From: Dipteris shenzhenensis
Taxonomy: Eukaryota
Strand: one strand, 5' to 3'
Length of the DNA stretch: 64,000 nt
Assembly: GCA_047967505.1 (NCBI GenBank)
Contig: CM106538.1
Shown: one piece after another, positions 1 through 63,931 of the stretch
How positions within the stretch are numbered: the first letter of the stretch is position 1
How the letters are laid out: each line of letters begins with the position of its first letter
The notes under the pieces: model-generated
The model's database searches: none
Seen by the model: the letters and a program-made list of their open reading frames with translations, nothing else
What the model was told of the DNA's origin: nothing
Program-made: the position numbers and the translations under genes

Positions 1-296
1 AATGGGGGAATACACACAAAGGTGGAGGCTGAAAATAGTTTTCCTCTTCTTAATTGTGTAAGCCAAAAGAACTCTAGTACAAAGAAATAGAAGAACCCTA
101 TATGTGGGTCTCAAACCAAACTCAACTCACTAAGGTGGCATACTAACTGAGCCACAAACTAGAGTAGATAAGGATAGCTGTCATCCAGTTATTATTCATG
201 GGCGGTGTACCAACCGCATCTCCAGCTAACAGGTTGGTGACATAAATGCACAACAGTCACCCTGGCATATCGCGAGTGGAGCTCGATATCTCAACA
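1..296 (-). repeat. 3' LTR of copia element 1 (partial)
   Basis: Matches 5221-5516 with 10 substitutions in 296 nt by my count. Ends in TCAACA next to the PPT. Confidence 0.96.
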
Positions 297-4636: not shown

Positions 4637-5165
4637 AATATTCTGTCACTGCAAAAAACACAGCTTTTGCCTCACACGGGCAGATCTGCAAAACTGACGA
4701 AAGTGGTATTTCACCACACAGTCACTTCCTAGTGACGATTTTGCATCAACAGGCAACAGGCATGAATCTGCAACTCCCAATATCTCTGCACACAGGCATA
4801 CGATGCAATTTCTGCGGCACCTTTCCACCGACTAGCCGCGCATTGGTCGCACAGCAAAAAACAGGGCCTTTTTCTGAGTGCCTGCGAAGAACTTCCGCCT
4901 TCAAAACGGGCCCCAAAACGGCCTCAAATCAGAAAAATAAAGTCACTGAGGGCTTTGCCCATGTCCGCAACATATACTGTACTCTCGCCACACCGCGAAG
5001 GGCGTCTCAATTTGAAACAGTGCACTCCTGCACTTCTGGCTGTGCTACTTGCAGAGATTTGCTCCCAAACTCGAAATAGGAAAGCAACACTTGTCCTCTT
5101 ACCAGGACACCACAAACTTGGCTTGCTTTCTTGAGCTCCTTACCACGAACAAGGCTCTGATACCA

Positions 5166-17832: not shown

Positions 17833-20130
17833 TGTTGAGAGAGAAGAAGAAGAGATGATAGACACACCAAATAGACTCACAAAGATTGATTCATATTGAT
17901 CACTAGTTACATATATATAGGTGAGACCTAGTTCAAGTTAAGGCAAGCTATATATAGCTCTAACACCCCCGCTCAAACAAAGGTCTCTAGCTACGAATGA
18001 AAAAAACCCTTGGGGAGCACAAGGGAAAACCCGAGCTCCTATATACAAGTATACAAGTTGATCATTTGTACAATTATTTACAAGACTTATGTAATGCAGA
18101 TGTGCATTTATATACAAAAGGTCACCCATGGATGTGTTAATCTTGGAGGAGAGAAGCTACAAGAACTCCAAGTTCTGATCATAGCACTGTGAAGCGTGCC
18201 TCACTAAGTCCTTTAGTGAGAATATCTGCAATCATTTGAGAAGTGGGACAATGTTCAATCATTATCATCTTTTTCTTCACTTCATGTCTGACATAATGGT
18301 AATGAACAACAATATGTTTGGATTTGTTATGCTGAACATAGTCTTTAGCCAGACTTATGCCACTTTGATTATCACATCTAAGAGGAGTACTAGATGATGG
18401 AGGATGACCAATATCTACAATCAATTGTCGTAGCCAAACCAATTCTCGAGCTGCTAGAGAAGACACTACATACTCAGATTCTATGGTAGAAACAACAACA
18501 CAATGTTGCTTCTTACTTGCCCAAGAGACCAAGCAAACATTGATAAAGAAGCAATTACCACTTGTAGACCGCATAGAGAAGTGAGAGCTTGCCAAATCTA
18601 CACCTGTATATCCCAAAAGATCAAGAGACATCACAGAAGATGATTTTGTATGACGTCGATAAACTAATCCAAAATCAGAAGTTCCTTTCAAATACTTTAG
18701 AACAAGTTTTGCTGCAGATCAATGTTGCATTGAGGGAGCAGCCAGATATTGACCTAGAAAATTGGTAGTAAAAAGAATATCTGGTCAAGTATTCAAACCG
18801 ACAAACTGTAGGCAACCAACACGATTGTCATAAGGTTGATGTGAAACCTCAACATCATGAGTCAATCGAGTATTTTTGACAGAGCTCACAAGACAAGGAG
18901 TGGTCGCAGAGTGAGCATTCGTCAAGCCAAACTTTTGAACTGCATCTTGAATGAATTTTGTTTGTCAAAGTAGTAGAATTTCCTTATGACGAAATCGCTG
19001 AACTTGAATGCCAAGACATAAATGAATGTCACCAAGATCAACCATATCAAATGCTGAGGATAAGATTTTCTTGACATGTTGCAAGAAATTGAGATTGTTG
19101 GAAACAAGTATGGTGTCATCCACATAAAGAGCAAGAATGACAAAAAGAGCACCATCACATTTGGCATATAAGTTGGGATCAGAGAAACAAGAGTTGAAAC
19201 CTTGAGATGTTAGAAACTGATCAATTTTCATGTACCAAGTACGAGAAGCTTGTTTTAGACCATAAAGAGCACGATGAAGGCGACAAACAAGATGGTCCTG
19301 ACCACGTATTATGAACCCTTCTGGTTGCTCCATATAAATCTCCTCTTTAAGATCTCCATTAAGAAAAGCAGTTTTCACATCCATTTGATGAATCTCCAAA
19401 TCAAATTGAGTAGCAAAAGCCAAGAGTACCCAAATACTTGTGCTACGAACAACGGGTGGAAAAGTAGCATGATAATCAACTCCTGCAATTTGTGAGTATC
19501 CTTTTGTAACCAGACGAGCTTTAAACTTACCAAAAGGACCATCAGCTTTAGTTTTGGTTTTATAAACCCACTTGCATTTGATAGGAGAGTGACTAGGAGG
19601 TAGTTCCAATAAGAACCCATGTACCTTTAGAGATCAAAGAATCATATTCAGCTTCCATTGCCTCTTGCCATTGACTCTTTTGTGCAGAAGAGATAGCTTC
19701 TGTATAAGTAGTAGGGTCTTCATGAGCAGCCATTGCATGATCAATGATTTCAAAGTCATCAACACAATCATGAGTAGCTCCATGTTCAAAATCAATAGGC
19801 AGATCAACATATATATCAACACTATCATCAGAGGCCTGTGTATGTGCAAGATCCAAATCAATATTGTCAACACATTGCTCTGCAGATGGAGTAGCAGTGA
19901 TGCCATCAGATGAATGAGTAGTAATGACATCAGAAGTGGAATCATTATCAAATAGAAAAGAAAAGGTAGACAGTAAGGACTCAGTGTCCTCTGCATCCTC
20001 GGTAGATGTCTCACTAGAAGTGGACTCTCACAAAGAACACTCAAGAGAACTCTCAATCGCTCAATCTCTCACACTCTCTCATATGGATCACAATGCCTCA
20101 GCAGAAGGCAAGGGAGCTTTCATACAATGA
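17833..20130 (-). mobile_element. Decayed Ty1/copia element 2 (3' LTR, PPT, RNase H, RT; 5' part missing)
   Basis: RT motifs CKWVYK, KARLV, QMDVKTAFLNG, LYGLKQA and YVDD (18965-19609). RNase H motifs SWASKKQ, ESEY, CDNQS and ADILTK (18179-18691). PPT GAGCGGGGG on minus at 17966-17974. A short candidate LTR TGTTG...TAACA spans 17833-17965. Confidence 0.88.
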
Positions 20131-22169: not shown

Positions 22170-25100
22170 TGATGATGACCTCGATGCAGAGGCTAACAAT
22201 TTCTTTAATCACAGAAATAATAACAATCAAGGCAGGCACCTCCTAGAAAAACTGAAGCTTCCCAAATATAATGGTAGGGGAGATCCACCCCGTTTCCTCT
22301 AGCATTTTGATGCCCCATTCCGAGCAGGTGGAGATCATTCCCATGAAACCAAGGTGGCCTGGTTTCCCATGGCCTTAACTAATGAAGCATCTGAATGGTA
22401 CCTAGACCTTCTAGTGGAAGAGCAAGCCACGTGGGACCTACTTTAATAGAATTCAAAAGGCACTTTCAAACGGAGAGGCTACAAGATGATCCCGCTCTCC
22501 AATTAAGCAAGATTGAACAAGGCCGTCGAGAAGACGTATACACGTACTTGGGCAAGATGAAAAGATTAATCGCCAAATGTGACCCATGCCCCGATGCAAA
22601 GTATCTCAAGGCCTGGTTCATTGCGGGACTAAGGAAGAAAATCTGGAAGGATATGAAAAAGATTAGCAGCTATGAAATGTTCAGTGTTGCTCATGCGGTA
22701 GCCATTGACATCGAGGATGGCATGACCGACTCTGACACTAGCAGTGATGATGGCAAATCCAATGCACGAGATAAGTGCTCTAAAAAGGGCAAATCCAAGT
22801 CCACTGCCAAAACATCAAATGAAGATCACCTAGAGACCATGACCATGAAGCTAAAAGAAGACATGATGCAGGACATGGAACAAAAGCTTCACTTGTCTCA
22901 ACTGCCACCTCAGACTTATCCACGGTGAGAAAATGTTTGGTGTCCACACTGCATGACCAATCATATAGCAAATGAGTGCCCGATCCTAAGAGCCAGGATC
23001 ACTGCACAAGCAAATCCACCACTAAGGTTGTGGTGCCATATCTGCGTCATTGGTGGCCATGATGAAAACAATTGCATCTTCAACTTCGCGACAACCCGCC
23101 TTGACCTCAACAATACCAACCAGCACCCATGCTAGTGTACAAGCAACCAGCACTTGCACAAGTGCCCCCAACTTTGAGGCTAAATCCTGTTCCTATTGGG
23201 ACACAAGTCGCACAATTACTCAAGAATCTGAATCCACAACCATATCCAAGAGTGCCAATTCTAGCTCCTCAGGAAGTTCCAATACATCAATTGCAAGCCG
23301 AGGAAGTAGACTCGCCATTTGAGTATGAAGCAGAGTACCTAGTGTACTATGTAGAAGGCACAGAGGGACTAATACCAGTCTATGCAAATCAAGTACATCC
23401 CAACACATATCGAGCACCAATCAAGTGCTACAGTTGTGGAGAAAATCACTAGATCGCAGAGTGCCCTCATCGTGGTAGCCCCACTACTTTCCAACCACTC
23501 TGTAGAGATTATGGCATAGGACATGCCTGAATGGATTGTCCCATGAAAAATAATGTCCCATAACAAACAGAGGTTAAGCCTGACATCCTAATCGGCATCA
23601 TTGGGGTGTACCATCAAAGTCAAAGGCTGGCAAGTATAATATCACAACCTGTGAATGTAATTACACACCAGCAGAAAGAGGCCACCAAGGACCCTAGAAT
23701 TCCAATCCAGCCAAAGCGACTTCTTAAAAAAGAAAGCACAAGTGCCTGCACCTCTGCCAAGCAATGAGCAGCCAAGCTCATCCACATCATCCCCGAGCCT
23801 CAAATAAAAGATGTTCCATACCCAAATGTAGAGGTGGATAAGGCTCGTTTTTAGGCACTTCAACAATGGGTATAAAAGGAACAAGCTCAATTTGAGGCTG
23901 AGAAACAAGCTCAAGACCCAATCCAGTGACTTGGCCCCACAAAGTATTGATATTGTACTCGAGCCTCTGTTCCAACAACAGACTCCACAACATAATGTAC
24001 CGCCATGTCAACTTGAAGGAGCCGCAATCTCTAGCATCCTGAGTTGCCCTGTGTCAATTCCCATCGGAATCCTCCTACGGAAGTGTCCCAAACTCTGGGA
24101 GAGTTTCAAAGGCTAGATTGAACTCGCAAATCCCCCTCCACCTATGGACGACATCGAAGATATCCCTGTGTGGATGGGTGAGAGAGATGACATACGCAAC
24201 ATTACTATGCCTTTGATCCACAAGGCATATAATGAAGTCCAAGCCATAGTGGATGGTGGAGCAGGTGTAAATGTCCTATCAAAGAAGCTCTACGATGAAT
24301 GGGATCTCCCACCAATGCAAAAGGCTAATTTTAACATACACCTTGCCGATGATTCACGGGCTAAACCCTTGGGAATAGTGAATGGCGTGTCCACAAAAGT
24401 CACAAGAGTCTGTTTTTCCCTTCAATTCACAATCTTGGATCTTCCCAAAAAATCCTATCAAATATTACTGGGACGTCCTTGGTTACGGGAAGCATCAGCC
24501 CTCCATGACTGGGGAAGTGATAGACTAACAATCCAAAATTGTGACACCGTAGTCAGGGTGAATGTGGGGACAGGAGCTATTAAACCAATTGTTCCTAAAG
24601 CGTTGGATGACATGTCTTCAACGACAATCTCAAGAAATCAACTCCCCTGCAATAGCATGCCATAGCAGGCGATTCACAAAGCAATGTCAATAACTGGATA
24701 CAAACATCGGCAACCATCGACAACTACCATTCATTAGACCCCATCTTCTCACAAATAGGTGCTATGGTGCTATAGGTAGATCCTCCACTCACACATGAAG
24801 AACCAATTGATCTAGAGGTGCCATTCTTTATTGGCTGACCTCGAGTGGGATAATGAACATAAAGAAGGTACCCATTCCAATGATGACTCAGATTTTCCTT
24901 GGGACCTTGAAACTGAGGTGGAGAATGCTAAAATTGAAGATCAAATCTTTGATAATGACTTAGTCATTTTGCATGCCCTAATGGTGGTCGAGCTCCCAAA
25001 AGTTGAGCCTCCAAAGTTGAATAATAGCAAAAGATCCCGCAAGAAAGCTGAAGGAGGAAATCGCAGAAAAGCCAAGGCTGAACACTTCAATGAATTTGAA

Positions 25101-46600: not shown

Positions 46601-49600
46601 ATCGGATGGGGGATCCACTTTGCACGCAAGTCTATTTCAACTATGTTGAGGTGTGTGCAAAGTATTGTCACCATTGGATATGGTTTGCATGGTCGATCAC
46701 GCATTATACACTATCTTTTCCCGAGTGATATGCACATCCGCAAAAAAACATGCCCTTAGGTGTGTTATCTGACCATGTACTTATCCGATGGGTGTGCCTC
46801 TTTGAGAACATTCCGATAGCACCTAGGTTGAGGCGTACGAAAAGTGTTGTGCCCATCGGATATCCTTTGCATGATCAATCGAGCATTAAATACTATTTTT
46901 GCTCTAGTGTCATGCACATCCTTAAAAAAATGCACTACTAGGTATGTTATCCGATCAAGCACTTATGGGATGGGAGTGCCACTTTGCATGTAAGTCAATT
47001 CCACCTAGTTGAAGATGTGTGAAAAGTATTGTGCCCATCGGATATGCTTTGCATTGTCGATCAAGCATAAAACAAGGTTTTTGCCTTAGTGCCATGCACA
47101 ACCATGAAAAAACACGGTCCTAGGTGTGTTAATCAAACAAGTACTTATCGGATGGGGGCTCCACTTCGCATGCAAGTCCGTTTGAACTACGTTGAGGTGC
47201 TCGCAAAGTATTGTCACCATCGGATATGATTTGCATGGTCGATCATGCATTATACACCGTTTTTTCCCTAGTGGTATGCACATCCACAAAAAAACATGCC
47301 CTTAGGTGTGTTATCTGACCAAGTACTTATCGGATGGGTGTGCATCTTTGAGAAAATTTCAATACCGCCTATGTTGCGATGTAGGAAAATTATTGTTCCC
47401 ATCAGATATCCTTTGCATGGTCGATCGAGCATTAAATACTATTTTTGCTCTAGTGTCATGCACATCCGTAAAAAAACACGCTGCTAGGTATGTCAATCGA
47501 TCAAGCACTTATGGGATGGTTGTGCCACTTTGCATGTAAGTCAATTCCACCTAGTTGAAGGTGTGTGCAAAGTATTGTGCCCATCAGATATGCTTTGCAT
47601 TGTCGATCAAGCATAAAACACTGTTTTTGCCTTAGTGTCATGCACAACCATGAAAAAACACGGTTCTAAGTGTGTTAATCAAACAAGTACTTATCGGATG
47701 GGGGATCCAGTTTGCACACAAGTCCGTTTCAACTAGGTTGAGATGCATGCAAAGTAATTTCACCATCGAATATGCTCTGCATGGTCGATTATGCATTATA
47801 CAAAGTTTTTCCCGTAGTGATATGCACATCCGCAAAAAAACACGCCCTTAGGTATGTTATCTGACCAAGTACTTATCGGATGGGTGTGCCTCTTTGAGAA
47901 CATTTCAATACCACCTAGGTTAAGGTTTAGGAAAATTATTATGCCCATCGGATATGCTTTGCATGGTGTATCGAGCATTAAATACCATTTTTACCTTAGT
48001 GTCATGCACATCCGTAAAAAAAACACGCTGCTAGGTGTGTTATCCGATCAAGTACTTAAGCGATGGGAATGCCACTTTGCATGTAAGTCAATTCCACCTA
48101 GTTGAAGGTGTGTGCAAAGTATTGTGCCCATCGGATATGCTTTTCATTGTCGATCAAGCAGAAAACACCGTTTTTGCCTTAGTGTCATGCACAACCATAT
48201 AAAAACACGGCCGTAGGTGTGTTATTCAAACAAGTACTTATTGGATGGGGGCTCCACTTTGCACACAAGTCCATTTCAACTATGTTGAGGTGCATGCAAA
48301 GTATTGTCACCATCGGATATGCTTTGCATGGTCGATCACGCATTATACACCGTTTTTCCCTAGTGATATGCACATCTGCAAAAAAACACGCCCTTAGGTG
48401 TGTTATCTGAGCAAGTACTTATCGGATGGGTGTGCCTCTTTGAGAACATTTCAATAACACCTAGGTTGCGGTGTAGGAAAAGTATTGTGCCCATCGGATA
48501 TCCTTTGCATGGTCGATCGAGCATTAAATACTATTTTTGCTCTAGTGTCATGCACATCCGTAAAAAAACACGCTGCTAGGTATATTATCTGATCAAGCAT
48601 CTGATCAAGCACTTATGGGATGGGCGTGCCACTTTGCATGTAATTCAATTCCACCTAGTTGAAGGTTTGTGCAAAGTATTGTGCCCATCGGATATGCTTT
48701 GCATTGTTGATCAAGCATAAAACACCGTTTTTGCCTTAGTGTCAAGCACATTTGTAAAAAAACACGGTCCTATGTGTGGTATCGGATCAAGTACTTATCT
48801 AACCGACAAGCCACTTTTCATGCAACTCAATAACACCTAGGTTGAGGTGGGTGCAAAGTATTGTGCCCATCGGATGTACTTTGCATGATATATCACGTAT
48901 TAAACTCTGTTTGTGCCTCAATGTCATGCACAACCATAAAAAAACACGCTTTTAGGTGTGTTATCCGACCAACTGCTTATCAGATGGGTGTACCACTTTG
49001 CATGCAATGCAATATCACAATTGTTGAGACTCATGCAAAGTATTGTGCCCATCAGATATGCTTTGCATTGTCGAACAAGCATTAAACACTATTTTGGCCT
49101 TAGTGTCATGCACAACCATCAAAAAACAAGGTCCTAGATGTGTTATTCGACTAAGTACTTACGGGATGGGCACGCCACTTTGCATGTAAGTCAATAATAC
49201 CTAGGTTGAGATGTGTGCAAAGTATTGTGATGATCGCATATGCGTTGCATTGTCGATTAAGCATAAATCAACGTTTTTGCCTTAGTGTCATGGACAACAA
49301 CCAATAAAAAATATGGTCCTAGGTGTGATATTCTAAAAAGTGCTTGTCACATTGGGGAGCCACTTTGCAAGAAAGTAATTTTAACTAGGTTGATGTGCGT
49401 GCACAGTATTGTGTCTATCGGTTATGCTTTGCATGGGGGATCACACATTATACACCATTTTTCCCCTAGTGTTATGCACATCCATCAAAGAACACGCTCT
49501 TAATAGGTATATTATCATACCAAGTACTTATTGAATGGGCGTTCCACTTTGCATGGAATACCATACCACTGCTTTTGAGGCACATGCAAAGTATTGTGCC

Positions 49601-49975
49601 CATCGGATATGCTTTACATGGTAGATTGAGTATTAAATACCATTTTTGGCCTTGGTGTCATGTACAACCGTCAAAAAACACGATCGTAGGTGTATTTTTC
49701 AAACAAGTACTTATCAGATGGGGATGCCACTTTGCACACAAGTCAATACTACCTAGGTTGAGGAATGTGCAAAGTCTTGTGTCCATTGGATATGCTTTGC
49801 ATAGTCGATCGCACATTATACACCATTTTGTTCCTAGTGTTATGCACAATCATCATAAAATACATTTGGAGGTGTGTTATCCGAACAAGTACTTATGGGA
49901 TGGGTGCACCACTTTGTATGCAAGTCAATACGACCTAGGTTGAGGCGTGTACAAAGTTTTGTGCCCATCGGAGAA
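43655..49975. repeat. Tandem satellite-like array: ~182-bp monomers organised as ~546-bp ABC trimers
   Basis: Trimer starts (TAGTGTCATGCACATC) near 43675, 44155, 44700, 45246, 45792, 46358, 46906, 47451, 47997 and 48543. Monomers share AAGTACTTAT and CCATCGGATATGCTTTGCAT. More diverged monomers follow after ~48730. Confidence 0.96.
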
Positions 49976-50269: not shown

Positions 50270-52361
50270 AATGGGAAGTGGAAGTGGGAGTGAGGAGGGA
50301 GGAGTGGAATGGGAGAGGGAAGTAATAAAGGTGTATGATAATAAGTATAAAAATAGTATAATAATATATTAATAGTTTTCAAATGGCAAGTGAGTAATGG
50401 GAAGTGGAAGTGAGAGGGGGGAGGGAAGAATGGAATGGGAGAGGGGAAGGTAATAGGGGAGTAGGATAATAAGGGAGTGAAATGAGTGAGGGGAGTTAAT
50501 AGGGGATGAAAAAGAGGAGGGGGAAATATGGAATTTTGGGAAATGGGAGGAGTATGGGACGTGGTGGAAATGTGGGATGGGAGTGGTGGCAATGGGGGAG
50601 GAAGAAGAAATGGATGGGGGGAGGGCTAATGGAAGATTGGGATGAGGGATGGGGGTCCAATGGGAGAGGGGGAGTAATGGGAGCCAATGGGAGAGGGGAT
50701 AAATGAAAAGCCAATAGGAGAGAGGGGAGGAATGGAAAGCCAATAGGAGAGGAGGAGGAAAACCTAATTTTTCTTATATATAGTCTTCCTTCTTCATTCA
50801 TTCTCCCCTCATTTCATTCATTGAAGCAAGAAAGCGAGGATGATCAAGAAACCAAGGAAGAGCAAGAAAGAGCAAACTTACAAACTTTTTCCAAGTACTT
50901 GCAAATTTTTTTGATTAATTCTTTATCTAGATTTTTTTTTTAAAATTTGAAGAGAGAGGAACTAGAGAGAGAGAGGTTCCTGGCGGCCCCTAGGAGGGGA
51001 GGAGAAGGAGAGGATGGAGGGGGGGAGGGGAGGGAGGGAGAGGGGAGGGAGAGGCGGGGGCGGGGTCGAGGGGGGGAGGGGGGGGAGGGGAGCCGGGGAG
51101 GGAGGGGGGGAGGGAGGGGCAGGGGCGAGGGCAGGAGAGGGAGGGAGGGAGCGGGGGGGTTCTAGCAGGGTCGAGGGAGGTAGGAAGGAGGGGGGGAGGG
51201 AAGGGCGGGGGCAGGGGGGGAGGGAGGGGGGAAGGGGGGAAGGGAGGGAGGGGGTGGAGCCGGGTGGGGGAGGGAGGGGGGGCTTTGGCGGCCGCGGCCG
51301 CCAGAACCCCTTGAAGGGGGGAGGGGAGGGAGGGGGGGTCTGGCGACTGCGGCCGCCACGACCCCGGGGGGGGGAGGGGAGGGAGGGGAGGGGGGAGGGG
51401 TCGAGGGAGGGAAGGGGGGGGGTCTGGCGGCCGCGGCCACCAGGACCCCCTGGAGGGGGGGAAGGGGGGCGGAAGGGGGGGTCTTGCGGCCGCGGTCGCT
51501 AGAACCCCTTGGAGGGGGGGAGGGGAGCCGGGTGTGGGGGTTAAAGGTCACTGTGTGGGAGCCAGGGTTGAGAGGAGGGGGGCGAGGTTGAGAGGGGGGC
51601 GACGGGGTCAAGAGGGGGGGCGGCCACCAGGACGGGGGGGAGGGGGGGTCCTGGCAGCCGCAACCACCAAGACTGGAGGGAGGGGGGAGGGAGCGAGGGA
51701 AGTGGGGTCGAGAGGAGGGGGGGTGGGGTCAAGAGGAGGGAGGGCGGCATCAAGAGGAGGGGGCGGGGTCGAGAGGGGGGGCAGCGGGGTCGAGAGGAGG
51801 GGGTGGGGTCAAGAGGGGGGGCGGCAGGGTTAAGAGGCGGGGGCGGCGGGGTTGAGAGAGAGAGGAGGGAGGGGAGGAACGGGAGGGAGGGAGAGGGGGG
51901 GCCTGGCGGCCGCGGCCACCAGGACAGGAGGGAGGGGGGTCCTGGTAGCCACAGCTGCCTGGACTGGAGGGAGGGGGGTCCAGGTGGTTGCGACTGCCAG
52001 GACAGGAGGGAGGGGAGGGAGGTAGGAGGGAGGGAGAGAGAGAGGAGGGAGGGGAGGGAGGGGAGGGAGGAGGGAGGGGAGGCAGGGGGTCTTGGCGACC
52101 GCAGCCGCTAGGGTGAGAGGGAGGGGAGGAGGGAGGGGAGGGAGAGAGAGGGGAGAGGAGGGAGGGGAGGGAGAGAGAGAGAGAGGGGGGGTTCCTGGTG
52201 GCCGCAGCCATTGGGTGAGAGGGAGGGGAGGTGAGAGGGAGGGGAGGGAGAGTGAAAGCGAGAGAGAGAGTGAGGGGGGGGGTCCTGGTGGCCGCGGCCG
52301 CTAGGGTGAGAGGGAGGGGAGAGGAGGGAGGGGAGGGAGAGAGAGGGGAGAGAAGGGAGGG

Positions 52362-52396
<35 letters not shown>

Positions 52397-53839
52397 TCCT
52401 GGCAGCCATGGCCATCGGGTGAGAGGGAGGGGAGGGAGAGAGAGAGAGAGAGGGGGGGTCCTGGTGGCCATGGATGCCAGGGTGAGAGGGAGGGGAGGGA
52501 GAGAGAGAGAGAGAGGGGGGGTGAGAGGAGTGAGGAGAGGGAGGAGAGGGAGAGAGAGAGAGAGGGGGGTCCTGGCGGCTGCGGCCCCAGGGTGACAGGA
52601 GTGAGGAAAAGGGAGGGGATAGAGAGAGAGGAGTGAGGAGAGGGAGGGGAGGGAGAGAGAGAGAGAGAGAGAGGGGAGGGGAGGAGAGAGAGAGAAGGAA
52701 GAGAGAGAGAGAGAGGACTCCTGGGGGCCGTGGTCCCCAGGGATGAGAGGAGAGTTAGAGGAGTAATGGAGGGAGAGGAGTGAGGGAGGGAGAGGGGTGA
52801 GAAGACGTGATGGAGAGGGAAACACTAGGAGAGAGAGAAGAGAGATGAGAAGACTTTAGGGAGAGGGGAAGGTAAGTGACTAGAGAGAGGAGAGATGAGA
52901 AGACTTGAGGGAGAGAGGAAGGTTGGGAAGGTATGGGACTAGAGAGAGAGAGAGATATGCGACTAGAGAGGGAGCTCCATCGCATAGAGAGGGAGCTCCA
53001 TTAGAGAGAGAGAGAGAGCCCACTACATAGAGAAGAGGAGAGGAGTAGAGAGAGAGAGGTCGAATTCTTACAAGAGCAACAAATAAGATTTGACTTAGGA
53101 AAAGAATGAAAGGGACTTACGAGAAGAAAGTATCAAGAAGAATGTTGAACACAAATTTGAATTCTTACAACTAAGAGTAGAACTATCACGAGCAAGAGCG
53201 ACAAATAAGATTTGACTTATGAGAAGAATGAAAGGGACTTACGAGAAGAAAGTATCAAGAAGAATGTTGAACACAAATTTGAATTCAAAAGGAACGTACG
53301 AGAAGAAAGTATCAAGAAGAATGTTGAACACAAATTTGAATTCAAATTTCCCTCTCTTTTTTAAAAATTCAAATTTATGCGTGGGAGGAGTGGGCTAGTT
53401 TTTCTTATCTATACTCTTCTTTCCATTCATTCATTCTCATTCTCTCCTCATTTCATTGAAGCAACCAAGAGCGGAAGAGAAAGGATAACCGGAGCCTTAC
53501 TTTTTTCACTTTTTCCAGGTACTTGCATTCTTTTTCATTCGTCTTGTAATTCTTTTTCTTTACTTACAATTCTTTTCAATTAGTTTCTTGTTAAAGTTTT
53601 TGAGTTTTATTTCTTAAAATTCATCTTGTAATTCTTTTTCTTTACTTACAATTCTTTTTCAATTAGTTTCTTGTTAAAGTTTTTGAGCTCTATTTCAATT
53701 AATTTTTTATTGAAATTTGTGGAGAATTTGTGTTCTAAATTTGAAAAGAGAGATAGAGAGAAAGAGAGAGCTAGAGAGAGAGAGTGTGAGAGAGATAGCA
53801 CAAGATTAAGAGAGAAAAGAAAGGAGGGAGAGAAAGTAG

Positions 53840-53923
<84 letters not shown>

Positions 53924-54927
53924 GACAGAAAGAGAGTGAGAGATTAAGAGAGAGAAGAGGGGCGGAGGGAGAGAAAGAAAACTCTTGGTGGCCGTGGCAG
54001 CTAGAGGAGGGGGGTTTTTTAGAAGGCATTACAATTCTTTTTAAATTAGTTTCTTATTTGAGTTTTTGAGTTCTATTTTAATGAGTTTCTTATTTATATT
54101 TGAGTTTGTAAATTTGAGAAATGAAAGAGAATAGGGAGGGAGAGAAAGAGAGAGGAGAGAGGAAAAGAGAGAAATTAAGAGATCGAAGAGGGGCTCTTGG
54201 TGGCCGTGGCCGCCAAAGGGAGAGAGAGAATGAGAAATGAGAGAGGAGCTACTGAGCTTCAAAGCATTCACGCACGCTCAGCTAGATCACCCGGGCTCTA
54301 ATACCAGTTGAGAGTGCTCTCAACGGAAGCAAGAACGAAAGAAGGAGAGAGAGAGAGATAGAGAGCCACACAAGTTTGGTGGGTGCAGAACCACCCTAAT
54401 CTTCTTTTTCATTCATTTATATATGTGTTTGAGTATTGTACATAACCGGGGTTAAGGCACAGTGACCTTTAACCCCCACATAGGGAGGGAAAGAAAGAGA
54501 GAGCTGAGAGAGGGAGAGAGTCTCCTGGCGGTAATGAGAGAGAAGAGTAGGGAGGGAAAGAAAGAGAGAGCTGAGAGAGGGAGAGAGAGATTAAGAGAGA
54601 GAAGAGAGTCTCCTGGCAGCCGTGGCTGCTAGAGGGAGGGAGAGAGTAGGGAGGGAGAGGGAGAGAGAGAAAGAGAAGAGAGGAGGGAGACTTAGGGAGA
54701 GAGAAAGAGAGAGAGGGAGAGAGAGGGAATGAAACTTCTGTGCTAGAGGGAGGGAGAGAGTAGGGAGGGAGAGGGAGAGAGAGAGAGAGAAGAGAGGAGG
54801 GAGACTTAGGGAGAGAGAAAGAGAGAGAGGTAGAGAGAGGAGGAGAGAGAGAAAGAGAGAGAGGGAGAGAGAGGGAATGAAACTTCTGGCAGCCGTGGCC
54901 GCCAGAGGGAGGGAGAGAGTAGGGAGG

Positions 54928-54988
<61 letters not shown>

Positions 54989-55014
54989 GAGAGAAGAGAG
55001 GAGGGAGACTTAGG

Positions 55015-55057
<43 letters not shown>

Positions 55058-55401
55058 GGAGAGAGAATGAAACTTCTAGCGGCCGTGGCCACCAAGAGAG
55101 GGAGGTAGAGAGAGAGAGAGAGAGAATGAGACTTCTCACGGCCGTGGCCGCCAAGGGAGGGAGGGAGGGAGGGAGAGAGAGAGAGAGAGAATGAGAAATG
55201 AGAGAGAAGAGGGGAGGGAGAGAAAGAGAGATTAAGAGTGAGAAGAGGGACAGAGGAGAGAGAGAAAGGGAGAGAGGGAGGGAGGGAGGGAGGGAGGCTG
55301 GGAGAGATTAAGAGAGAGAATTCAGAGAGAGAGAGACATAGAGAGAGAAAGAATGACAAATCGTAGTGGCCAAGAGGATAGAGGTAGGGAGGTAGAGAGG
55401 C

Positions 55402-55454
<53 letters not shown>

Positions 55455-55654
55455 GAGAAGAGGAGAGAGAGAGAGGAGAGAGGTGGAGAGAGAGAGAGAG
55501 AGAAATAATTACAAATCCTAGGGAGAGAGAGAGAGGTGAAGAGAGAGAATGATAAATCGTAGCCGCCATGGGAGGGAGAGAAAGAGAGACTTGAGATAAA
55601 CTAAGAGAGAGAATGAGTGGGATGAGGATAGAGAGGAAAACACATAAGAGTTGT

Positions 55655-55693
<39 letters not shown>

Positions 55694-55750
55694 AGAGAGA
55701 GAATGAGGTGTCTTGACTATGGCTATAGAGAGAATTAGGAGTCGAGAGAG
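50270..55750 (+). repeat. Strand-biased G/GA-rich low-complexity region with a recurring CTGGCGGCCGCGGCC motif
   Basis: G-runs and (GA)n on the + strand, interrupted by AT-rich blocks at about 50760-50950 and 53060-53750. Confidence 0.93.
54245..54480 (-). mobile_element. Short LTR (54309-54480, 172 bp) with an iMet PBS; fragment of a small LTR element
   Basis: The minus strand reads TGTGGGGG...CTCTCA-AC-TGGTATTAGAGC (PBS at 54295-54306). It is embedded in the GA tract and has no second LTR. Confidence 0.65.
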
Positions 55751-58700
55751 AGAAAGTTCAAAGGAAAGAGAGAGTTTTATATATTTACATGTTTTATATT
55801 ATACTTTTAAAAAATTATAAAAGAGTGAATTTATGGTTTGTTTTGAAGGTGAGATAATATTTTTATATATATTCATCTTTTAAATTGAAAAATGTTAACT
55901 TTTCTTTAGATACTTGTCCTTTATTTCTCTCACATGCAGGTTTAGCCTCTACATCAAAACCCCTTCTTTTGCATATTTAAGCCTCTTAAACCCCAGCACA
56001 TTAAAATGAACACAGAAAAAGAAATTATTTATTGCTTTTCTTCGCTTTGACGGTTGGTTTAGCATAGATTATATTGCCTTAGAGGAGAGACAATTGTCCA
56101 AGTTGCCAATCGAAGCCATGCTTAAATTTTTCTAACTAGTTCCTAATCGTTGTCAGTTCCTTCGCTCACATGCGGTTTAACACTCATAACATGTTATTAA
56201 ATAATACCTTTTACCATTTACCAAGAAGTCTATCAGTGGGCAGATTGAGATAGCAGATATCAGTGGACAGATTACATATATCAGTGGACAGATTACATGT
56301 CATGGGACATATTGGAGCTTGATGATTATTGGTTATTTTTATTGCATTTGTATAAATATTTAAGCTCATTTATTGTCATAAAAAACCTTGTAAAGCCTTT
56401 TAGGCTATTTTTTACATTTATTGCCATATGAAGCACCTTGTAATAAACCCGACCATCCTGACCATTCACTATTTAACGAGTATTAGTGGGCTGCATAAGT
56501 GGATATCAGTGGAACAGTTTTTAGTGGGTAGATTGCGTTAGTTGGGTATCAGTGCGGAGATATCAATGGATGGACAGATTACATGTCATCACGAAGATTG
56601 AAGCTTTATCACTAGAGGGCAAGTCAATGGATGGACAGATTACATGTCTTCACGAAGATTGAAGCTTTATCACTAGAGGACATTTTATTTCATTGTAAAG
56701 CTTTATTGGCTAATTTTTTTAGATTTATACAAATATTTAAGCCTTGTAAAGCCTTTTAGGCTATTTCCCACATTTATTGCTATAAAATACTTTGTAAAGC
56801 CCTCTCCACTATTGGTCACATTTATTGCCATATGAAGCCTTGTAAAGCCTTTTGGGCTATTTCCCACATTTATTGTATCGAGCGTTGTATATTGTACTTT
56901 ACTTGTATGTATCTAAATTCTTCATTATCTTTTCTTGTAGGATTATGGAGCAATCAACTAATGTGGGGGCTATCCTAAATGACTCTGAGATTAGAGCATG
57001 GGTCTCTGATGTCACTTTGAATTTGAAAGGAAAGGAATATAGCCCCAATGGCTTTGGTAGGTGGACTCGATATCACATGGGAAGAAGAGCTTGGTTTCTT
57101 CATCAAAAGGAAAAGAGACTCTTTCTACTTATGTCAAAAAGGGAGTTCAATGATGTTGAAGATCCATGGGATGCTACTTTCTTCAAAAAAGATATGACTT
57201 CAAGCCTTGTAGTAGGCATAATGATAGAGCCAAAAGAGACTTTTATGAATATTTTCACAAAGAGTTCAGATCCTGAAGTTGGCGGTCTTCATTTTGTTGT
57301 GTCAAGGAGAGACTCAAAGACCTTTGTGATGCCTCCTCCTCAATGATCAAAGTTTCCAGAGCTGCAAAGTGCATTGGAGGCTCTTGCATATACTTGGGAG
57401 CAATTTCCTAGTGTGGTGGCAAAAAGGATGCATGCATAGATAATGTTTGAGTGCTTTCAAGATGCATAATATGCTCTTCATTTTCAAGGATCGTCACAGG
57501 AAGGAGATCAAGCTCAGACTTCAATGTAGGGACAAGAAGAACATGCACACTGTCACAAATGTGTAGAACATGAGTGCAAACTTCTAGAGCAAGAAATGGT
57601 GGATGTAATTAAGGATGATGAAACACAAGCCTTGAGTGCATGGGAATTAAAAAAAATTGAAGAAGATCAAGGTCGATCCACTTCAGTTATGCTAGAAGCT
57701 CTTGCTAGCAAACCACGACGTGAAATGCAAAAGGCTAGTACTGCAAGAGCCACGGTTCCAAGTAGTAAAAAAAGGCATCGTCCCACTGTAGAGAAAGATC
57801 ATGTGGATGAAAAACGGTTAAAAGAAGAGAAAGATGAAGAAGACTCAGAACCCGAGGCTAAAGATGATCAGGATGAACTCACATCAATCAAAAATCTTAA
57901 TCTGCATCTTAATGAAGCAGTAACAGATGATGATGTGGGATATATCTAGGGTCAAAGGACGTGGTTTGTGAATGCCAAAGATGTGGAAGCTGCAGCTGTC
58001 TTTACTAATAGCCGAAGCCTTGATATATCCTATGCACTGCAAATATACGAGGCTTTGAGAGATGGAAAGAAACCTGTGGCAAGCAATGTGGTCCTGTGCC
58101 CAATAATGTTCTGTCCAATTAAAAATAGCTTTCTGGATCAAATAACATTTACAGGGCCTACACATTTCGAGGAAACCTTCAGTCAATTCCTTAAAGACAC
58201 TCTTAGAAATATTCCACATGAACAAGGCGAAGAGGCACAAGGTGAGAATATGCTAAAGGAAGCAAAGAAGGAATTCCTCCTTCATTGCAGATTCCAGCCC
58301 ATCGATGGTCAACATTGGGCTTATGCTTGTAATCAGATCGCAAAAGAAGCAAAGGAGGTCAAAAGACTCATTTCAGAACAATTTGCAAAGATAAGTTCAT
58401 TCCATTATTATCCTACAACAATCTGTTTATTCAAGCATGAGATCAAGTATTTGATTGAGTTCGAAAGACTTAATCATTATGTCCATGGAAAGCGTAAGAT
58501 ATCCTCAACATCAGGGGTCTTACAGAAGGCAAGGGTTATATGGACAACATTTGGTTCTCCAAATCTTGATTTGAAGCGAAAGGTCACAAAAGCAGACGCC
58601 GACACACTCACAAACTTCTATACTTCTTTGAGTGCAGTTGTGCCAAGGGGAACTCAAGAGCGAGAAGAAGATATGACAAGCCTCAAGGTGGTGAGGAACA

Positions 58701-60243
58701 GATATGCCGACTACACTTCTATGATATTTTGTCCTGTTGAAGTGTTCAATGAGATGCTTGAAACGTGCATTGCTTGTGAGCGTGGACAATTGACCTATGA
58801 AGCTCCTTTGTTTATCTCCGGAAAGTCAAAGGTAATGGATAAGAAGGAGTTGACGGCAAGGATGTGGAGGCCTATAAAGTACTTACCTGACAAGTATGCA
58901 TCCATGGCAGCACAAAAACTTTTAAAGAAAGAATGGTTTTTTGGAAAGAAAGACAAAGACCACTGCATGGAAGAATGCATCAATGTACAGGTGAGGCATG
59001 ATGCAGTGCATAGTGCCATTAAGTATTTGCTGTCAGAGAAACAAATTCCACTTACTCATTGTAACATTGACTATAATGTGGTCAAGCATATAGCTTCTTT
59101 GTCAACACCCAAGGTAAAGCTATGGGCAAACAGGTGGATTAAAAAGGATGAAGATGGGTCAGAAATAGTAACCTCTTACATGAGAAAAGAAATCCCACAA
59201 CAACTGGTTGCATATGTGGAAAGATTAATCAGCGAGATAAGGATGCCGACAGATATGCACCAAAGCTTTCAATTCAATGTAGAGGTTACATCAGAGTCTG
59301 GAAAGCTTGTGAACTTCAAGGGAGTTTCAGAAAATGACTTCATCAAGAATGAGTCAGCATGGAATAAGCCACAACTGTTCTTTATCAATGAAGTTTCTAG
59401 CGATGATATCCATAACTTCATTGATAGAATAATATATACCACCATTAGCAAAGTGGCAACTTGCAACATTGTCATTTTTGTTGATAAAAAAGAAAAAGAA
59501 GCCATGCAGGTTACTCTAGAGCGAGCATATTCATAAGATTTGAAGATGATCTATAGTGGTGTTTATGTAGCAAAGAGAGGCAAGAGAGAGTGTGGCATAG
59601 CGATTCAATCTCTTGAATCATTCTTCTTGTGTATGTGGAGTCCCAACCCTGATCACTTCTTACAAAAGAACATAAGAGGGAATTCAAATAATTTGAGATT
59701 GATGCTAGAAGAGCAAGATATTCCCAGCTCCATACATTATCAAAAAAACAACTATGGAAGTCCTGCAAAAAGTGGGAGTCTCTTGCTTAACATGATGGAG
59801 AATTTGCTACCGGCAGGTTGGGAGGTCACCTTGTGCAAGATGGGATATTTATTTGAGGATCTCCTTAGAAAAGGCAACTCCACAAATATTATTGAAAACA
59901 AGCATTTCATGGCTTATTTTTAGCTTCAAGCAGATCTAACCACAGGCTATGAAAAAGAGATAGAGCACAAGGACACTAATGACATGGATGATTACCTTGA
60001 AGATCATAATGTCCCAGTTGATGATGATGAAAAGATTGACTTACATGACCCATTCAGAGAGAGGTTGGTGGATGAAGAGAAAGATGATGATGTCTTTGAT
60101 AATTATGGCTCGCAGGGTTATGTAAAAAGGCCACTACGACAATACTTAGCGGTATGAACTCTCTATTTCTCAACTAAATACAATTTTTTAAATAAGATTT
60201 AAATTTAAAGATAATGAATCTAATCTCTCATATTTGTTTACAG

Positions 60244-61392
60244 GCAATAGAGGGAGAAGAAATGGATGAAGTCAATATGGAGGCACTCCCTTCTACTTCA
60301 GCAATGCAACCACCTCTAAATTTGATTGAAGAATCCCATGAGCACAAGAGCTTTAAAGACAACATGGAAAAGCAGAATGACCGCAAACATAGAATACAAG
60401 CTATCACAAAGACCCATTCTGCAAATTTAGCTGCATTGGATAAAATGGAGAGCTCATTTGAAGTTAGGATCGTTTTGAAACGAGAACCTCAGTATTTGAG
60501 CTTTGGTAGAGAGGAGGTTTCAATCCTCTCCAATCCTTTAAAAGAGGTTAATGACAATGTTATCCTGGCCATTCTCAGGTAACGTTTGTTTATTTGTTGC
60601 TACTTCAATGAGCTAACATTTGTTTATTTGTTTACAGTGTAGTTATATATCAGTTTCCTAGTGCAGAATGCAAATCAATTCTATGAGCTAACGTTTGTTT
60701 ATTTCTTGGTGCAATGTAGTTATTTCTCAGGTTCCTAGTGCAGTAGTGTAGAATCGTGTCTACATGCTCGTCGATGCTCTCCTTTCTTCTATTTTTAGCT
60801 CTCCTCAAAAGAATATAGAAGACGTTTGTACCTCGTTAAGCCCTTTGAATTTAGATGGGGTGCGAGTCATCTTTATGCCTTATCATGAGGAGTAAGTATC
60901 AACTCCAACCTTATTTTTACTATTTCTTTGGCAAGTTTGTGTAAAACAACAATCATTTTTATTCTGGTCATGTAGCTCACATTGGAGTCTGATCGCTTGG
61001 GACCTTGAAGTCAACCATTTGTGGTTTGTGAATTCAATGGAAGGGAAGGCTATCATGCCAACTCCCCAAGGTAATTATTCTCTTAATATTTTTGTTACTT
61101 TCTTATTTTGTATCTTATGATCATGACATATTAATATATTTAATATGTCATGATGGACAGTGCTACATATCGGCTAGTATCTGCTATCAGAACAACCACA
61201 GAGCAACAAGACCAAGTAGAATTCAAACGACGTCTACCAGTGGAGCAAAAAGATGGGCATAGTTGTGGGTGGAGAGTTGCCTACAACTGCATGTTGTTTC
61301 TTAGAGAGATTTTTGATTTGGAGTTACCATTCAAAATGGAATTGTATACAGAAGCCGATCTACTAGCATTTCGGGCTGAGAGTATTGCCTAA
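60244..61392 (+). pseudogene. Ulp1/C48-like protease domain, repeat 1
   Basis: Exons EVNDNVILAILR | RVYML...VRVIFMPYHE | SHWSLIAWD...FVNSM | QKDGHSCGWRVAYNC with GT-AG boundaries. Confidence 0.85.
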
Positions 61393-61821
61393 TTGCTACC
61401 ATTGGGAAATAACTTGAAAAATATGACTACATTGCAGCATGTATAAAACCTTATCTTTATACTTGTATGCTTGTTCAAGCCTTTAATTGGGATGCGTAAA
61501 TCTCATAACTTTTTTATATTTTCCTCCAAGAGGAGAAGAGACTGAGTCTAATGAAAGCATGCTATCTTTATACTTCTATGATTATTTAAACATTTATTTT
61601 TATTTGGGATATGTAAATCTCATAACTTTTTAAAATTTTCCTCCAAGAGGAGGAGAGACTCACTCTAATGAAAGCATGTATGAAACCTTACTTTTTAAAT
61701 TTTTGCTCCAAGAGGAGGAGAGACTCACTCTAATGAAAGCATATATGAAACCTTATCTGCTTATTTAAGCCTTTATTTGGGATGTGTACATCGCATAACT
61801 TTTTTATATTTTTATAACAAA

Positions 61822-62830
61822 AGGAGGATGTAGAAGACATAGCAAGTGAAGAAGAATATGATGTAGACTACTCTCTCAATAAGATGAGTCATGAAAATAT
61901 GACTCTATTGTAGCAGATTGGAAGTTCATTCACCGCTATGTTGTTAATTCGACAACAACCTCATTTTTTTGAATTTGGTGAAGAAGAGATTTTAATTCTC
62001 TTGAATCCTAAGAAAGAGGTTAATGTCAAAGTCATTACAACCATCCTCAGGTTTGATGCAGCCTTTTCCTTGGCTTTATACTTTGCTTATTTTGATTAAA
62101 CCCAAGAAGCTAATACTTTTTTTAAAAAAAAAGTAATGTTATAGCAAATTTTCCTCAAAATATACAAAGTGTTTCATATATGCCCGATCCTCTTATTTCG
62201 GAAGTGCTTAGCAACAAAGAAGAAACCATAGAGGATGTTTGCAAGTGGTTAAAGCACGTTCCTATGAATGAGGCACGAGTTATCTTTACAGCATATTATG
62301 AGAAGTAAGCATCAAACCCTACTTGTTTTTTCTATTGCATTGCTAGAATTGTCTCAAACACAGTAATTATTCTTTATTGATAATGCAGCTCACATTAGAG
62401 TTTGGTAGTCGTGGACATCTTTGCTAAGAAGTGCTTCTTTGCCAACTCAATGACATCCGTCCATGGCACTGTGTTAGAGTAAGTATAGACCACTTGTTGT
62501 CACTTCTTGACATGTAGATTGATATGCAATGCACATATTCACTGTTGTTATATGTTTTGATGTGTGGATCAGCTCGAAAGTTAGTAGGTGCTATCGACAC
62601 AATAATGCAGCAATGTGACTTGGCACAACAAATAGAGTATATAACATGTCGGGTATCACATCAAGAGGATAGCCACATCTATAATTGTGGATGGAGGGTG
62701 GGCTACAATTGCTTTTTGGTACTTGGTGAAATTTTTGAGATACAAAATGACACCACACTGTCAACATATACGGATTTGCATCTCTATGCATTTATAACAT
62801 GTACCATTCGAGCAATCATTAAGGGCGACA
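61822..62830 (+). pseudogene. Ulp1/C48-like protease domain, repeat 2
   Basis: EVNVKVITTILR | ARVIFTAYYE | SH*SLVVVD...FANSM | QEDSHIYNCGWRVGYNC, with the same intron positions as repeat 1. Confidence 0.82.
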
Positions 62831-63931
62831 TTATGGACCCTCCCACAAGGCAAATAGATAATGGCTCAGAGGAGTGCGAATTAAATGCCGTCAAAGAGTC
62901 AAAGGGGATAGAAGACCTCAACTCTACAAACATGGCTTCATTGGAAGAATTGGGAAGCTCTTTTAATGTTAGGGTTATGATTCAACATAGACCTCAGTAT
63001 CTTGAATTTGGGGGAGAGGAGATTTCAATCCTCTCTAGAGCTTCAAATGAGGTCAATAACAATGTTATGATGGCCATTCTCAGGTTTGATACAAACTTTT
63101 TCTCTGCTTGATAATTCAATATTTTGATTAAATCTAATAAGCTAATATTCATTTATTTGTTGGTGCAGTATAGTTATCTCACGATTTTGTAGAGCCGTAC
63201 AAAACCGTGTGTATATGTTGGACTCCCTCCTTTCTCCTATACTTAGCGATAGCAGAAAGACGATAGCCGATGTTTGTAAATGGTTACAGCCTTTACATTT
63301 ACATGGCGTGTGAGTCCTATTTATGGCATATCACGAGATGTAAGTATCATGGCAACCTTTATTTTCATCTTATACAGGCAACATTGTGTTAAATAATAAT
63401 GGTTCTTGATTATTCGTGTAGGGAACATTGGAGTTTGGTGGTTTGGGACCTTGGAGACAACTATTGTTGGTTTATCAACTCGATTGCAGGCTTTCATGGC
63501 TCAGTGCAAACGTAAGTATTCTATTAATCTGTTGTTACTTCTATATTATGTACCTTATGTAATAGACACACTAAGTTTTTTTAATATGTCATGATGAGCA
63601 GGTCGATTGAGAAGTTGGTATCTGCTATCAGAGAAACAGGACAGTACAAAGACTCGCTAGACTTCTAAAAGCGTTTAGTAGTAGAGCAGGAAGATGGGCT
63701 TAGTTGTGGGTGGAGAGTTGCCTATAACTGCATGTTGATTTTCAAAGAAATTTTCTCATTTAAGCCACAGGTCTCATCGGAAGACTCTTTGGAGCTCAAA
63801 TATTCAGAGGAGGATATACAATTGTTTAGGGCTGAAATCATTTGAGACCTAATTGCTGCCATTAGAATACAACGTGCAACTGAAGCAATATCAGAGCTTG
63901 CATTTAAGGAAGAGGATACTGAGTCTACTTG
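62831..63931 (+). pseudogene. Ulp1/C48-like protease domain, repeat 3
   Basis: EVNNNVMMAILR | RVYMLDSLL...VLFMAYHE | EHWSLVVWD...FINSI | QEDGLSCGWRVAYNC, with the same intron positions. Confidence 0.85.

Follow-up and report, generated by a model that had tools for sequence, protein, structure and literature searches.

The stretch of DNA analysed here, referred to as the window, comprises 64,000 nucleotides (nt) of contig CM106538.1 from the Dipteris shenzhenensis assembly GCA_047967505.1, and all positions are those of the window. Close to its end, on the plus strand from 56945 to 63931, lies a broken gene in which a long reading frame of ~1070 codons is followed by three tandem repeats resembling cysteine proteases of the family Peptidase_C48 (Ulp1/SENP, PF02902); the window ends 69 bases past the gene end at 63931. 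This gene is probably an inactivated copy of an accessory gene, not a transposase gene, that sits on a repeated and probably mobile element of a non-seed-plant-like genome and whose intact form consisted of a long N-terminal part without a Pfam family and three tandem C48/Ulp1 domains. Judged from the sequence, an intact version would encode a protein of about 1,800-1,900 amino acids (aa).

Three tandem Ulp1-like protease repeats

The downstream half of the gene is made up of the following segments:

60451-61389, plus strand: C48/Ulp1-like repeat 1, exons 60451-60578, 60715-60891, 60976-61070 and 61161-61389
61390-61916, plus strand: decayed stretch between repeats 1 and 2, containing a 65-nt tandem duplication at 61625-61755
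61917-62802, plus strand: C48/Ulp1-like repeat 2, exons 61917-62050, 62134-62304, 62389-62478 and 62573-62802
62803-62934, plus strand: linker from repeat 2 to repeat 3, open in frame throughout and uninterrupted by introns; other copies are a net 51 nt shorter here, in frame
62935-63842, plus strand: C48/Ulp1-like repeat 3, exons 62935-63083, 63169-63339, 63422-63511 and 63602-63842
63843-63931, plus strand: tail behind repeat 3, opening with TGA 63843 and ending where the first-pass annotation placed the end of the gene

The repeats can be aligned with one another across exons and introns alike, at a mean column identity of 74 %, and each consists of four exons, mapped by coordinate, and three introns. 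The nine introns are 82-136 nt long, with GT at all nine donors and AG at eight of the nine acceptors. When the exons were joined, with X placed at breaks, the repeats came to 209, 209, and 217 aa with pairwise identities of 41-57 %.

None of the three is undamaged: repeat 1 is stopped by TAG 60749, has gained 5 nt near 61040, and reads AA at its first acceptor; in repeat 2, a stop (TAG 62396) directly follows the His, where the His box should have Trp, and exon 4 starts with a 4-nt deletion; and repeat 3 is broken by TGA 63311 and TAA 63666. The linker between repeats 2 and 3 is open and the TGA at 63843 after repeat 3 matches a CGA in repeat 2, which suggests that the ancestral gene probably spanned all three domains. 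The 65-nt tandem unit between repeats 1 and 2 (95 % identity) resembles the tail behind repeat 3 and marks the decayed repeat 1/2 junction.

The three repeats are C48/Ulp1-like by the sequence comparisons that follow. The reference set consisted of 15 bacterial sequences scoring above the curated PF02902 cut-off, drawn from 7 of the 401 genomes searched. Comparing the joined repeats with this set in hhalign gave a probability of 86.7 % and an E-value of 4.4e-6 over 105 columns, while no more than 0.3 % was reached by any of five unrelated alignments and no more than 0.5 % by any of 30 column-shuffled versions. The register of this alignment places H-W-S-L on the HW box of the family, F-x-N-S on DS, and Q-x-D...C-G-W on Q...CG. 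Likewise, a hidden Markov model (HMM) built from the bacterial set gave the repeats scores of 4.7-5.7 bits, a level that none of 600 shuffles reached (maximum 4.0), and the boxes for the catalytic His, the oxyanion Gln, and the Cys (H(W)SL, Q.D, CGW) stand in order in all three repeats. These results support the first-pass annotation, which had named three Ulp1 proteases here, to the extent that the repeats are Ulp1/C48-like.

Relative to cellular Ulp1/SENP proteases (PF02902), the His, Asp-position, Gln, and Cys boxes of the repeats have the same order and spacing, in keeping with the profile-profile match. The window repeats differ from these enzymes in having Asn for the catalytic Asp in all three cases, in being tandemly triplicated, and in having single exons too diverged for Pfam scoring.

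The long open frame and its junction with the protease array

The upstream half of the gene, up to the first protease repeat, contains these features:

56945, plus strand: ATG-side start of the long frame, whose last exon base is 60151
56945-60151, plus strand: long exon of a Pfam-less family, 1069 codons in a single frame with 7 in-frame stops
57326-57529, plus strand: candidate phase-0 intron of 204 nt (GTGATG...TGTAG)
57890-58750, plus strand: conserved domain with a TNxR box, a PI strand, and DGQH, the sole part shared with the relatives P0001-P0007, P0010, and P0011
59357-59923, plus strand: region read as methyltransferase-like in the first-pass annotation, without family or profile match
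59924-60151, plus strand: acidic end of the long exon, reaching the donor, from the translation
60152-60243, plus strand: predicted phase-0 intron of 92 nt, GT-AG, with a pyrimidine tract ahead of the AG
60244-60450, plus strand: linker portion of exon 2; other copies lack 87 nt of it, in frame, at 60334-60422

Translation of 56945-60157 yields 1071 codons in one frame without a frameshift, closing with TGA at 60155 and interrupted by seven internal stops (57344 TGA, 57437 TAG, 57467 TAA, 57527 TAG, 57947 TAG, 59534 TAA, and 59921 TAG). In 1069 random codons at 40 % G+C, I estimate that ~60-70 stops would be expected by chance. A stop count this far below chance, together with an uninterrupted piece of 528 codons, argues that the long exon is a real reading frame that was open until recently. 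The first-pass annotation had described it as four fragments of one frame from 56945 to 60151 with seven stops and no frameshift; all of this stands except the number of fragments, as the frame contains five open reading frame (ORF) pieces of at least 50 aa (166, 139, 528, 128, and 77 aa). Four of the seven stops cluster within 186 nt, at 57344-57529, and the GT at 57326 and the AG at 57529 would define a 204-nt phase-0 intron holding all four of them. If 57326-57529 were spliced out, only three stops would be left in the long coding sequence.

At the 3' end of the long exon, a GTATGA donor at 60152 is paired with a pyrimidine-rich acceptor, ...TTTGTTTACAG, that ends at 60243, and exon 2 continues from 60244 in an open frame. 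The in-phase splice from the long exon to the protease repeats, as put forward in the first-pass annotation, is therefore possible by sequence. It has to be weighed against a reading with two neighbouring genes in one repeated unit, namely a ~1070-codon gene ending at TGA 60155 and a separate triple-protease gene starting from an ATG in 60214-60264, in which case the splice would be coincidental. The frame does stop two codons beyond the donor, an acidic tail closes the long exon as is often the case at protein C-termini, and in-frame ATGs open the downstream frame, all of which would suit such a pair of genes. I nevertheless regard this arrangement as unlikely. Merely ~60-110 nt separate TGA 60155 from those ATGs, and the 60152-60243 intron is in phase, ends in a polypyrimidine tract and AG, and at 92 nt falls into the size class of the nine repeat introns. 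In addition, the long exon and the protease part stay adjacent in other copies: a contig of sequencing run X2 bridges 60038-60528, with an in-frame 87-nt deletion. A 1673-aa representative in a Streptophyta protein-atlas cluster related to P0007 points the same way as a lead only. On the strength of the in-phase intron, the small distance to the following ATGs, and the adjacency kept in other copies, the long exon and the protease array would have been expressed as a single transcript.

A decayed copy of a repeated family

Contigs from four DNA sequencing runs, placed at a threshold of at least 80 % identity, matched the 7 kb of the gene in numbers of 127, 62, 16, and 19 (contigs, not copy numbers), covering 30, 30, 27, and 26 of 30 bins, respectively. 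Identities ranged from 80 to 99 %, mostly 90-99 %. In run X1, whose contigs total only 1.95 Mb, 15 of the 127 contigs were at least 99 % identical to the window, 78 were at 95-99 %, 32 at 90-95 %, and 2 below 90 %. This fits a multi-copy repeat rather than a single locus. Taken together with the stops and frameshifts of the window copy, these contigs also agree with the first-pass annotation in that the gene is a decayed copy, and they place it in a repeated family.

Differences between the window and these contigs preserve traces of a coding past. Among the indels listed (12 small ones and two skip joints common to all four runs), eight lie in exons and six outside. Six of the eight exon indels are multiples of three (3, 3, 87, 3, 3, and net 51 nt), and the other two, 5 nt near 61039 and 2 nt at 61386, both coincide with inferred window-specific frameshifts. 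Indels in introns or between repeats measure 1, 1, 1, 1, 2, and 1 nt. That exon indels come in threes while those in introns and between repeats do not supports both the exon model and a coding history.

An ordinary, immobile host gene that turned into a pseudogene, with the related contigs being orthologues or alleles of other individuals or species, is a very improbable explanation. It would account for the lack of a visible transposase or termini (see below), and most contigs are 95-99 % identical to the window, as would be the case for alleles or close species. Against this, the small run X1 alone places its 127 contigs on 7 kb at identities from below 90 % to above 99 %, several of them at some places, the neighbourhood consists of retrotransposons, satellite, and low-complexity DNA, and the ratio of observed to expected CpG is 0.30.

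Relatives of the long exon

The pieces of the long exon matched no Pfam family, giving only sub-threshold matches with E-values of 0.067-0.32. Searching 1.84 billion representative proteins with the 528-aa piece in phmmer returned seven proteins, P0001-P0007, with E-values from 9.8e-19 to 5.2e-4. Six of the seven are fragments of 99-252 aa, one being a hypothetical protein of the lycophyte Diphasiastrum complanatum, while P0007, with 1097 aa, is encoded on an ENA metagenome contig. Two further relatives, P0010 and P0011, were found via P0007. Word-index searches with the 528-aa ORF found none among longer proteins (4486 candidates) or those of similar length (7710 candidates), scans of metagenome and viral contigs with the window ORF and with P0007 found no relatives, and tblastn against phages gave a single match at chance level (E 0.9).

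Homology between the window and P0007 is limited to about 217-220 aa, with 25 % identity and an E-value of 1e-13. This conserved domain is recognised by the boxes TNxR-L, L-x-PI, and (E/Q)P(V/I)DGQH followed by AC, with the DGQH codons at 58304-58315 in the window. The stop at 57947 falls inside it. Relatives have Tyr at this position and contigs of all four DNA runs have TGG (Trp), so the TAG break is specific to this copy or lineage. P0007, P0010, and P0011 are G+C-rich, apparently intron-less, and 683-1097 aa long, and share the TNQR...DGQH domain alone with the window; P0010 and P0011 have ~340 extra N-terminal residues that are absent from the P0007 gene model. In the protein atlas, the first neighbours of P0007 are two unnamed Streptophyta clusters (similarity 0.96) with representatives of 813 and 1673 aa.

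The ParB and methyltransferase readings

In the first-pass annotation, the long exon was described as a ParB/DGQHR-like domain followed by a methyltransferase-like fold. Some transposons of algae do carry such proteins: in the available text of one report, ParB-like plus methyltransferase accessory proteins of ~1100 aa occur in transposons of brown, green, and red algae (PMC12477816); the accessible part of a second describes the ParB-2-oxoglutarate-oxygenase accessory gene PAG3 beside inverted-repeat arrays in Plavaka elements of the red alga Bostrychia (bioRxiv 10.1101/2025.02.11.637652); and ParB-linked methyltransferases are also mentioned for chlorophytes in the portion available of a third (PMC4738411). 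On the full reading of this kind, the long exon would be a true but highly diverged ParB/DGQHR domain together with a beta-class N6/N4 methyltransferase fold that has probably lost catalysis. With three Ulp1 domains fused to it, it would descend, in land plants, from the accessory genes for ParB-methyltransferases found in giant transposons of algae. I hold this to be possible but on balance doubtful, and the same tentative standing applies to a true derivation of the N-terminal half, taken as ParB and a METHYLTRANSFERASE, from such a module.

Several observations speak for this derivation. The TNxR...PI...DGQH boxes are collinear with the QR...DGQHR boxes of the DGQHR family, and the sole hhalign segment obtained against that family pairs the TNQR box with the QR box. 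After the two Streptophyta clusters, the atlas neighbours of P0007 are all phage proteins with ParB_N and/or N6_N4_Mtase, at similarities of 0.77-0.78 which, being below 0.9, count as leads only; they agree with the independent guess made in the first-pass annotation. The sizes of P0007 (1097 aa) and the window exon (1069 codons) are similar to that of the Ectocarpus Sola1-1_Ec32 protein, given as 1104 aa in the available text (PMC12477816). The order of strands and helices around DGQH in an AlphaFold2 model is compatible with the fold, in a model of low confidence (mean predicted local distance difference test, pLDDT, 45.9; predicted template modelling score, pTM, 0.36).

Profile searches did not support it. 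Neither the window pieces nor eight relatives matched Pfam, NCBIfam, or PHROGs, the families at issue being ParB N-terminal/DGQHR (PF02195, TIGR03187; ParB/Srx fold) and N6_N4_Mtase (PF01555), and a profile of the conserved domain retrieved no PDB chain at E <= 10. For profile-profile comparison, alignments of 24 DGQHR proteins, 21 plasmid ParB_N proteins (with a seed taken from the E. coli O157 chromosome and pO157), 8 N6_N4 methyltransferases, and 31 ParB_N-N6_N4_Mtase fusions (with a Pfam-confirmed seed and relatives in 73 of 401 genomes) were used, and the window-family query had eight rows and an effective number of sequences (Neff) of 2.5. This query reached 0.5 % against the DGQHR and 0.1 % against the ParB_N proteins, a round that is uninformative since its own positive control, DGQHR against ParB_N, reached only 1.9 %. 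Against the 31 fusions, the window family scored 1.8 % and in the wrong region, while the read-through window protein (P0012) scored 0.1 % and P0007 0.4 %, the latter two being single-sequence queries of low sensitivity. The controls against the same fusion alignment gave 96.9 % for ParB_N, 99.9 % for methyltransferase, 21.7 % for DGQHR, and 0.0 % for C48. As the query profiles were shallow (Neff 2.5 or single sequences), this negative is not a strong one. A rank test of HMM scores against shuffles gave a small p for DGQHR and also for the methyltransferase negative control, and was dropped as non-specific.

The motifs themselves are incomplete as well. DGQH is present in five of the seven alignment rows that cover the position (P0001 has YGQH and P0002 DSQH; P0006 ends earlier), the Arg of DGxHR is absent, and the following residue is W, F, or I but never R. 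Methyltransferases of this kind are marked by (D/S)PP(Y/F) as motif IV and FxGxG as motif I, and neither was seen by eye in the window ORF. Both parts of the earlier assignment are thus left without support from these comparisons: for ParB/DGQHR there is only a DGQH lacking the Arg and atlas neighbours below threshold, with nothing from Pfam, NCBIfam, PHROGs, PDB profiles, or hhalign, and the methyltransferase-like fold has no Pfam match, the low hhalign values set beside a near-complete control, and no visible motifs.

Upstream repeat arrays and the proposed accessory gene

Directly ahead of the long frame lies one further feature:

56230-56890, plus strand: short direct-repeat arrays directly 5' of the ATG, built of units of 16 nt (x5), 48 nt (x4-6), and 61 nt (x2)

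All of these arrays are on the plus strand and they are found nowhere else in the window. The 16-nt motif has seven matches at up to 3 mismatches, compared to 0.84 expected, and five of the seven fall within 56230-56890; a 25-nt core has three matches, compared to 0 expected, all within the same interval. As candidates, the arrays may be sites to which the gene's own protein binds, or else subterminal repeats belonging to the element.

From these features, the following working model of the accessory gene can be proposed. Its N-terminal part would belong to a sparsely sampled eukaryotic family and consist of the ~220-aa conserved domain (TNxR...PI...DGQH), a poorly conserved middle, and the acidic tail, and it would be followed by three C48/Ulp1-type cysteine-protease domains in tandem, each with a His-Asn-Gln-Cys set. 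The conserved N-terminal domain may target the protein to DNA or chromatin, with the upstream repeat arrays as one possible site, where the proteases might strip SUMO or another ubiquitin-like modifier and so help the element to resist silencing, in parallel to the VANC-Ulp1 protein KIU of VANDAL Mutator-like elements (MULEs). A more specific version, in which a land-plant transposon encoded a single giant accessory protein made of an extremely diverged, catalytically dead ParB-N6/N4-methyltransferase module and a triple Ulp1 array with a His-Asn-Cys triad, binding the repeat arrays of its own gene and stripping SUMO from the chromatin there, seems rather improbable to me.

A number of results weigh against the reading as a mobile accessory gene with protease domains. 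No transposase domain was found in 60 ORFs of at least 85 aa outside low-complexity DNA between 4.7 and 56.8 kb (52 + 8), and terminal inverted repeats and target site duplications of an element were not found within the window. The long frame runs into TGA 60155, two codons past the donor, if 60152-60243 is left unspliced. Single protease exons had no Pfam family at E <= 1 and an exon-4 profile had no PDB match at E <= 10, which is why the joined repeats were compared profile to profile with the bacterial PF02902 set. At the catalytic Asp position, ~17 residues after the His, all three repeats have Asn (F.NS) where the family has Asp, making protease activity uncertain. Numbers of contigs do not translate into copy numbers, and relatives, rather than the same genome, may be the source of the runs. 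Finally, among the 39 substitutions listed in the long frame, 14 are synonymous and 25 non-synonymous, compared to 27 % synonymous expected without constraint (p = 0.14); there is accordingly no clear purifying selection, and recent divergence looks close to neutral.

The search for a transposase was extended to the nine pieces of the gene, in which Pfam recognised no DNA transposase family (MULE, CACTA/TNP2, hAT, PIF, KDZ, or others), and the upstream region 55700-56720 holds no recognisable transposon terminus. The statement in the first-pass annotation that no transposase is visible in the window holds for the nine gene pieces and 60 ORFs scanned.

Comparison with known transposon accessory proteins

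Transposon-captured Ulp1 domains of plants are known mostly from MULE and CACTA elements of angiosperms, with VANC-Ulp1 anti-silencing proteins as one functional clue; the VANC-type domain is DUF1985. By analogy, the closest documented counterpart of the window gene would be the VANC-Ulp1 (KIU) gene of VANDAL/KAONASHI MULEs. According to the part of the report available, KAONASHI/KIU combines VANC with a transduplicated Ulp1 in MULEs without terminal inverted repeats (VANDAL) of Arabidopsis and other angiosperms, and its VANC part recognises short motifs in the non-coding sequence of the element that carries it and causes loss of methylation (PMC13317346).

On that description, both genes are borne, in the case of the window probably, by a transposable element without being transposases, both combine a large non-enzymatic and presumably DNA-targeting part with a C48/Ulp1 domain, and the short motifs targeted by VANC have a counterpart in the short-repeat arrays directly upstream of the window gene. 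The differences are equally apparent: the account of KIU has one Ulp1 domain where the window has three in tandem; no Pfam family is recognised in the window pieces at E <= 1, hence none of the VANC type; Asn occupies the catalytic Asp position in the window repeats; the relatives of the window gene are a lycophyte protein and metagenome proteins rather than angiosperm ones; and there is no MULE transposase near it in the ORFs from 4.7 to 56.8 kb and the gene pieces scanned.

The algal ParB accessory proteins Sola1-1_Ec32 (PMC12477816) and PAG3 (bioRxiv 10.1101/2025.02.11.637652) resemble the window gene, as far as the available text of either source goes, in being transposon accessory proteins of ~1,100 aa and in the DGQH-type motif of the window family, and the tandem repeat arrays adjoining the window gene are reminiscent of those reported for PAG3. 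They differ in that they were annotated from detectable domains, whereas the ParB/methyltransferase signal of the window passes no profile test, and in that the same portions mention no Ulp1 domain.

A literature search, with supplementary annotations outside its scope, returned no account of this family, of a triple Ulp1 array, or of Ulp1 joined to a ParB- or methyltransferase-like protein in a eukaryotic transposon. The first-pass annotation had presented the combination as undescribed in plants. This holds insofar as no described ParB/methyltransferase-Ulp1 combination was found, and it has to be qualified, since the available text of the respective reports already documents Ulp1 together with a DNA-binding anti-silencing protein of a transposable element (PMC13317346) and ParB-methyltransferase accessory genes in algal transposons (PMC12477816). 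Neither ingredient is of a new kind: Ulp1 is known as cargo of plant transposons, and large accessory proteins that target DNA are known as well.

The window locus is the gene of a different repeat family, which pairs a tandem triple Ulp1 array with a protein of ~1070 codons and whose long-exon family, with seven matches among 1.84 billion representatives and one of them from a lycophyte, is nearly absent from protein databases. Because the window copy is dead, its value lies in pointing to this family. If intact copies exist, they would allow the question of why deSUMOylases are recruited by transposons to be addressed in an independent case, and deeper alignments built from genomic copies would allow one to ask whether the ParB-methyltransferase accessory module of algae reached land plants. 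Should the fusion of a ParB-methyltransferase to a triple Ulp1 array prove true, algal accessory genes and angiosperm VANC-Ulp1 factors would be linked as one recurring strategy.

Neighbourhood of the locus

The 60 scanned ORFs contained only Copia and other retroelement pieces and a fragment of glycosyl hydrolase family 1. On the minus strand, 257-4645 is an uninterrupted Copia-type polyprotein of 1462 aa (gag, zinc knuckle, integrase, and RVT_2; E-values down to 5e-76) and may be part of a young, intact retrotransposon. Further retroelement fragments at 5597-6025 (plus strand), 18968-19633 (minus strand), and 22395-24662 (plus strand) comprise Integrase_H2C2, a second RVT_2, and gag and aspartyl-protease pieces. 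The glycosyl hydrolase family 1 match at 13426-13887 (plus strand, E 3e-15) probably represents an exon of a beta-glucosidase of the host, from either a gene or a pseudogene. Closer to the locus lie a satellite at 48000-49972, with 10.7 copies of a 182-bp unit and 73 % matches, and ~5 kb of purine-rich low-complexity DNA at 50600-55700 (GGGA, GA, and related 20-180-bp units) with a GC skew of about +0.6, which yields long spurious ORFs on both strands.

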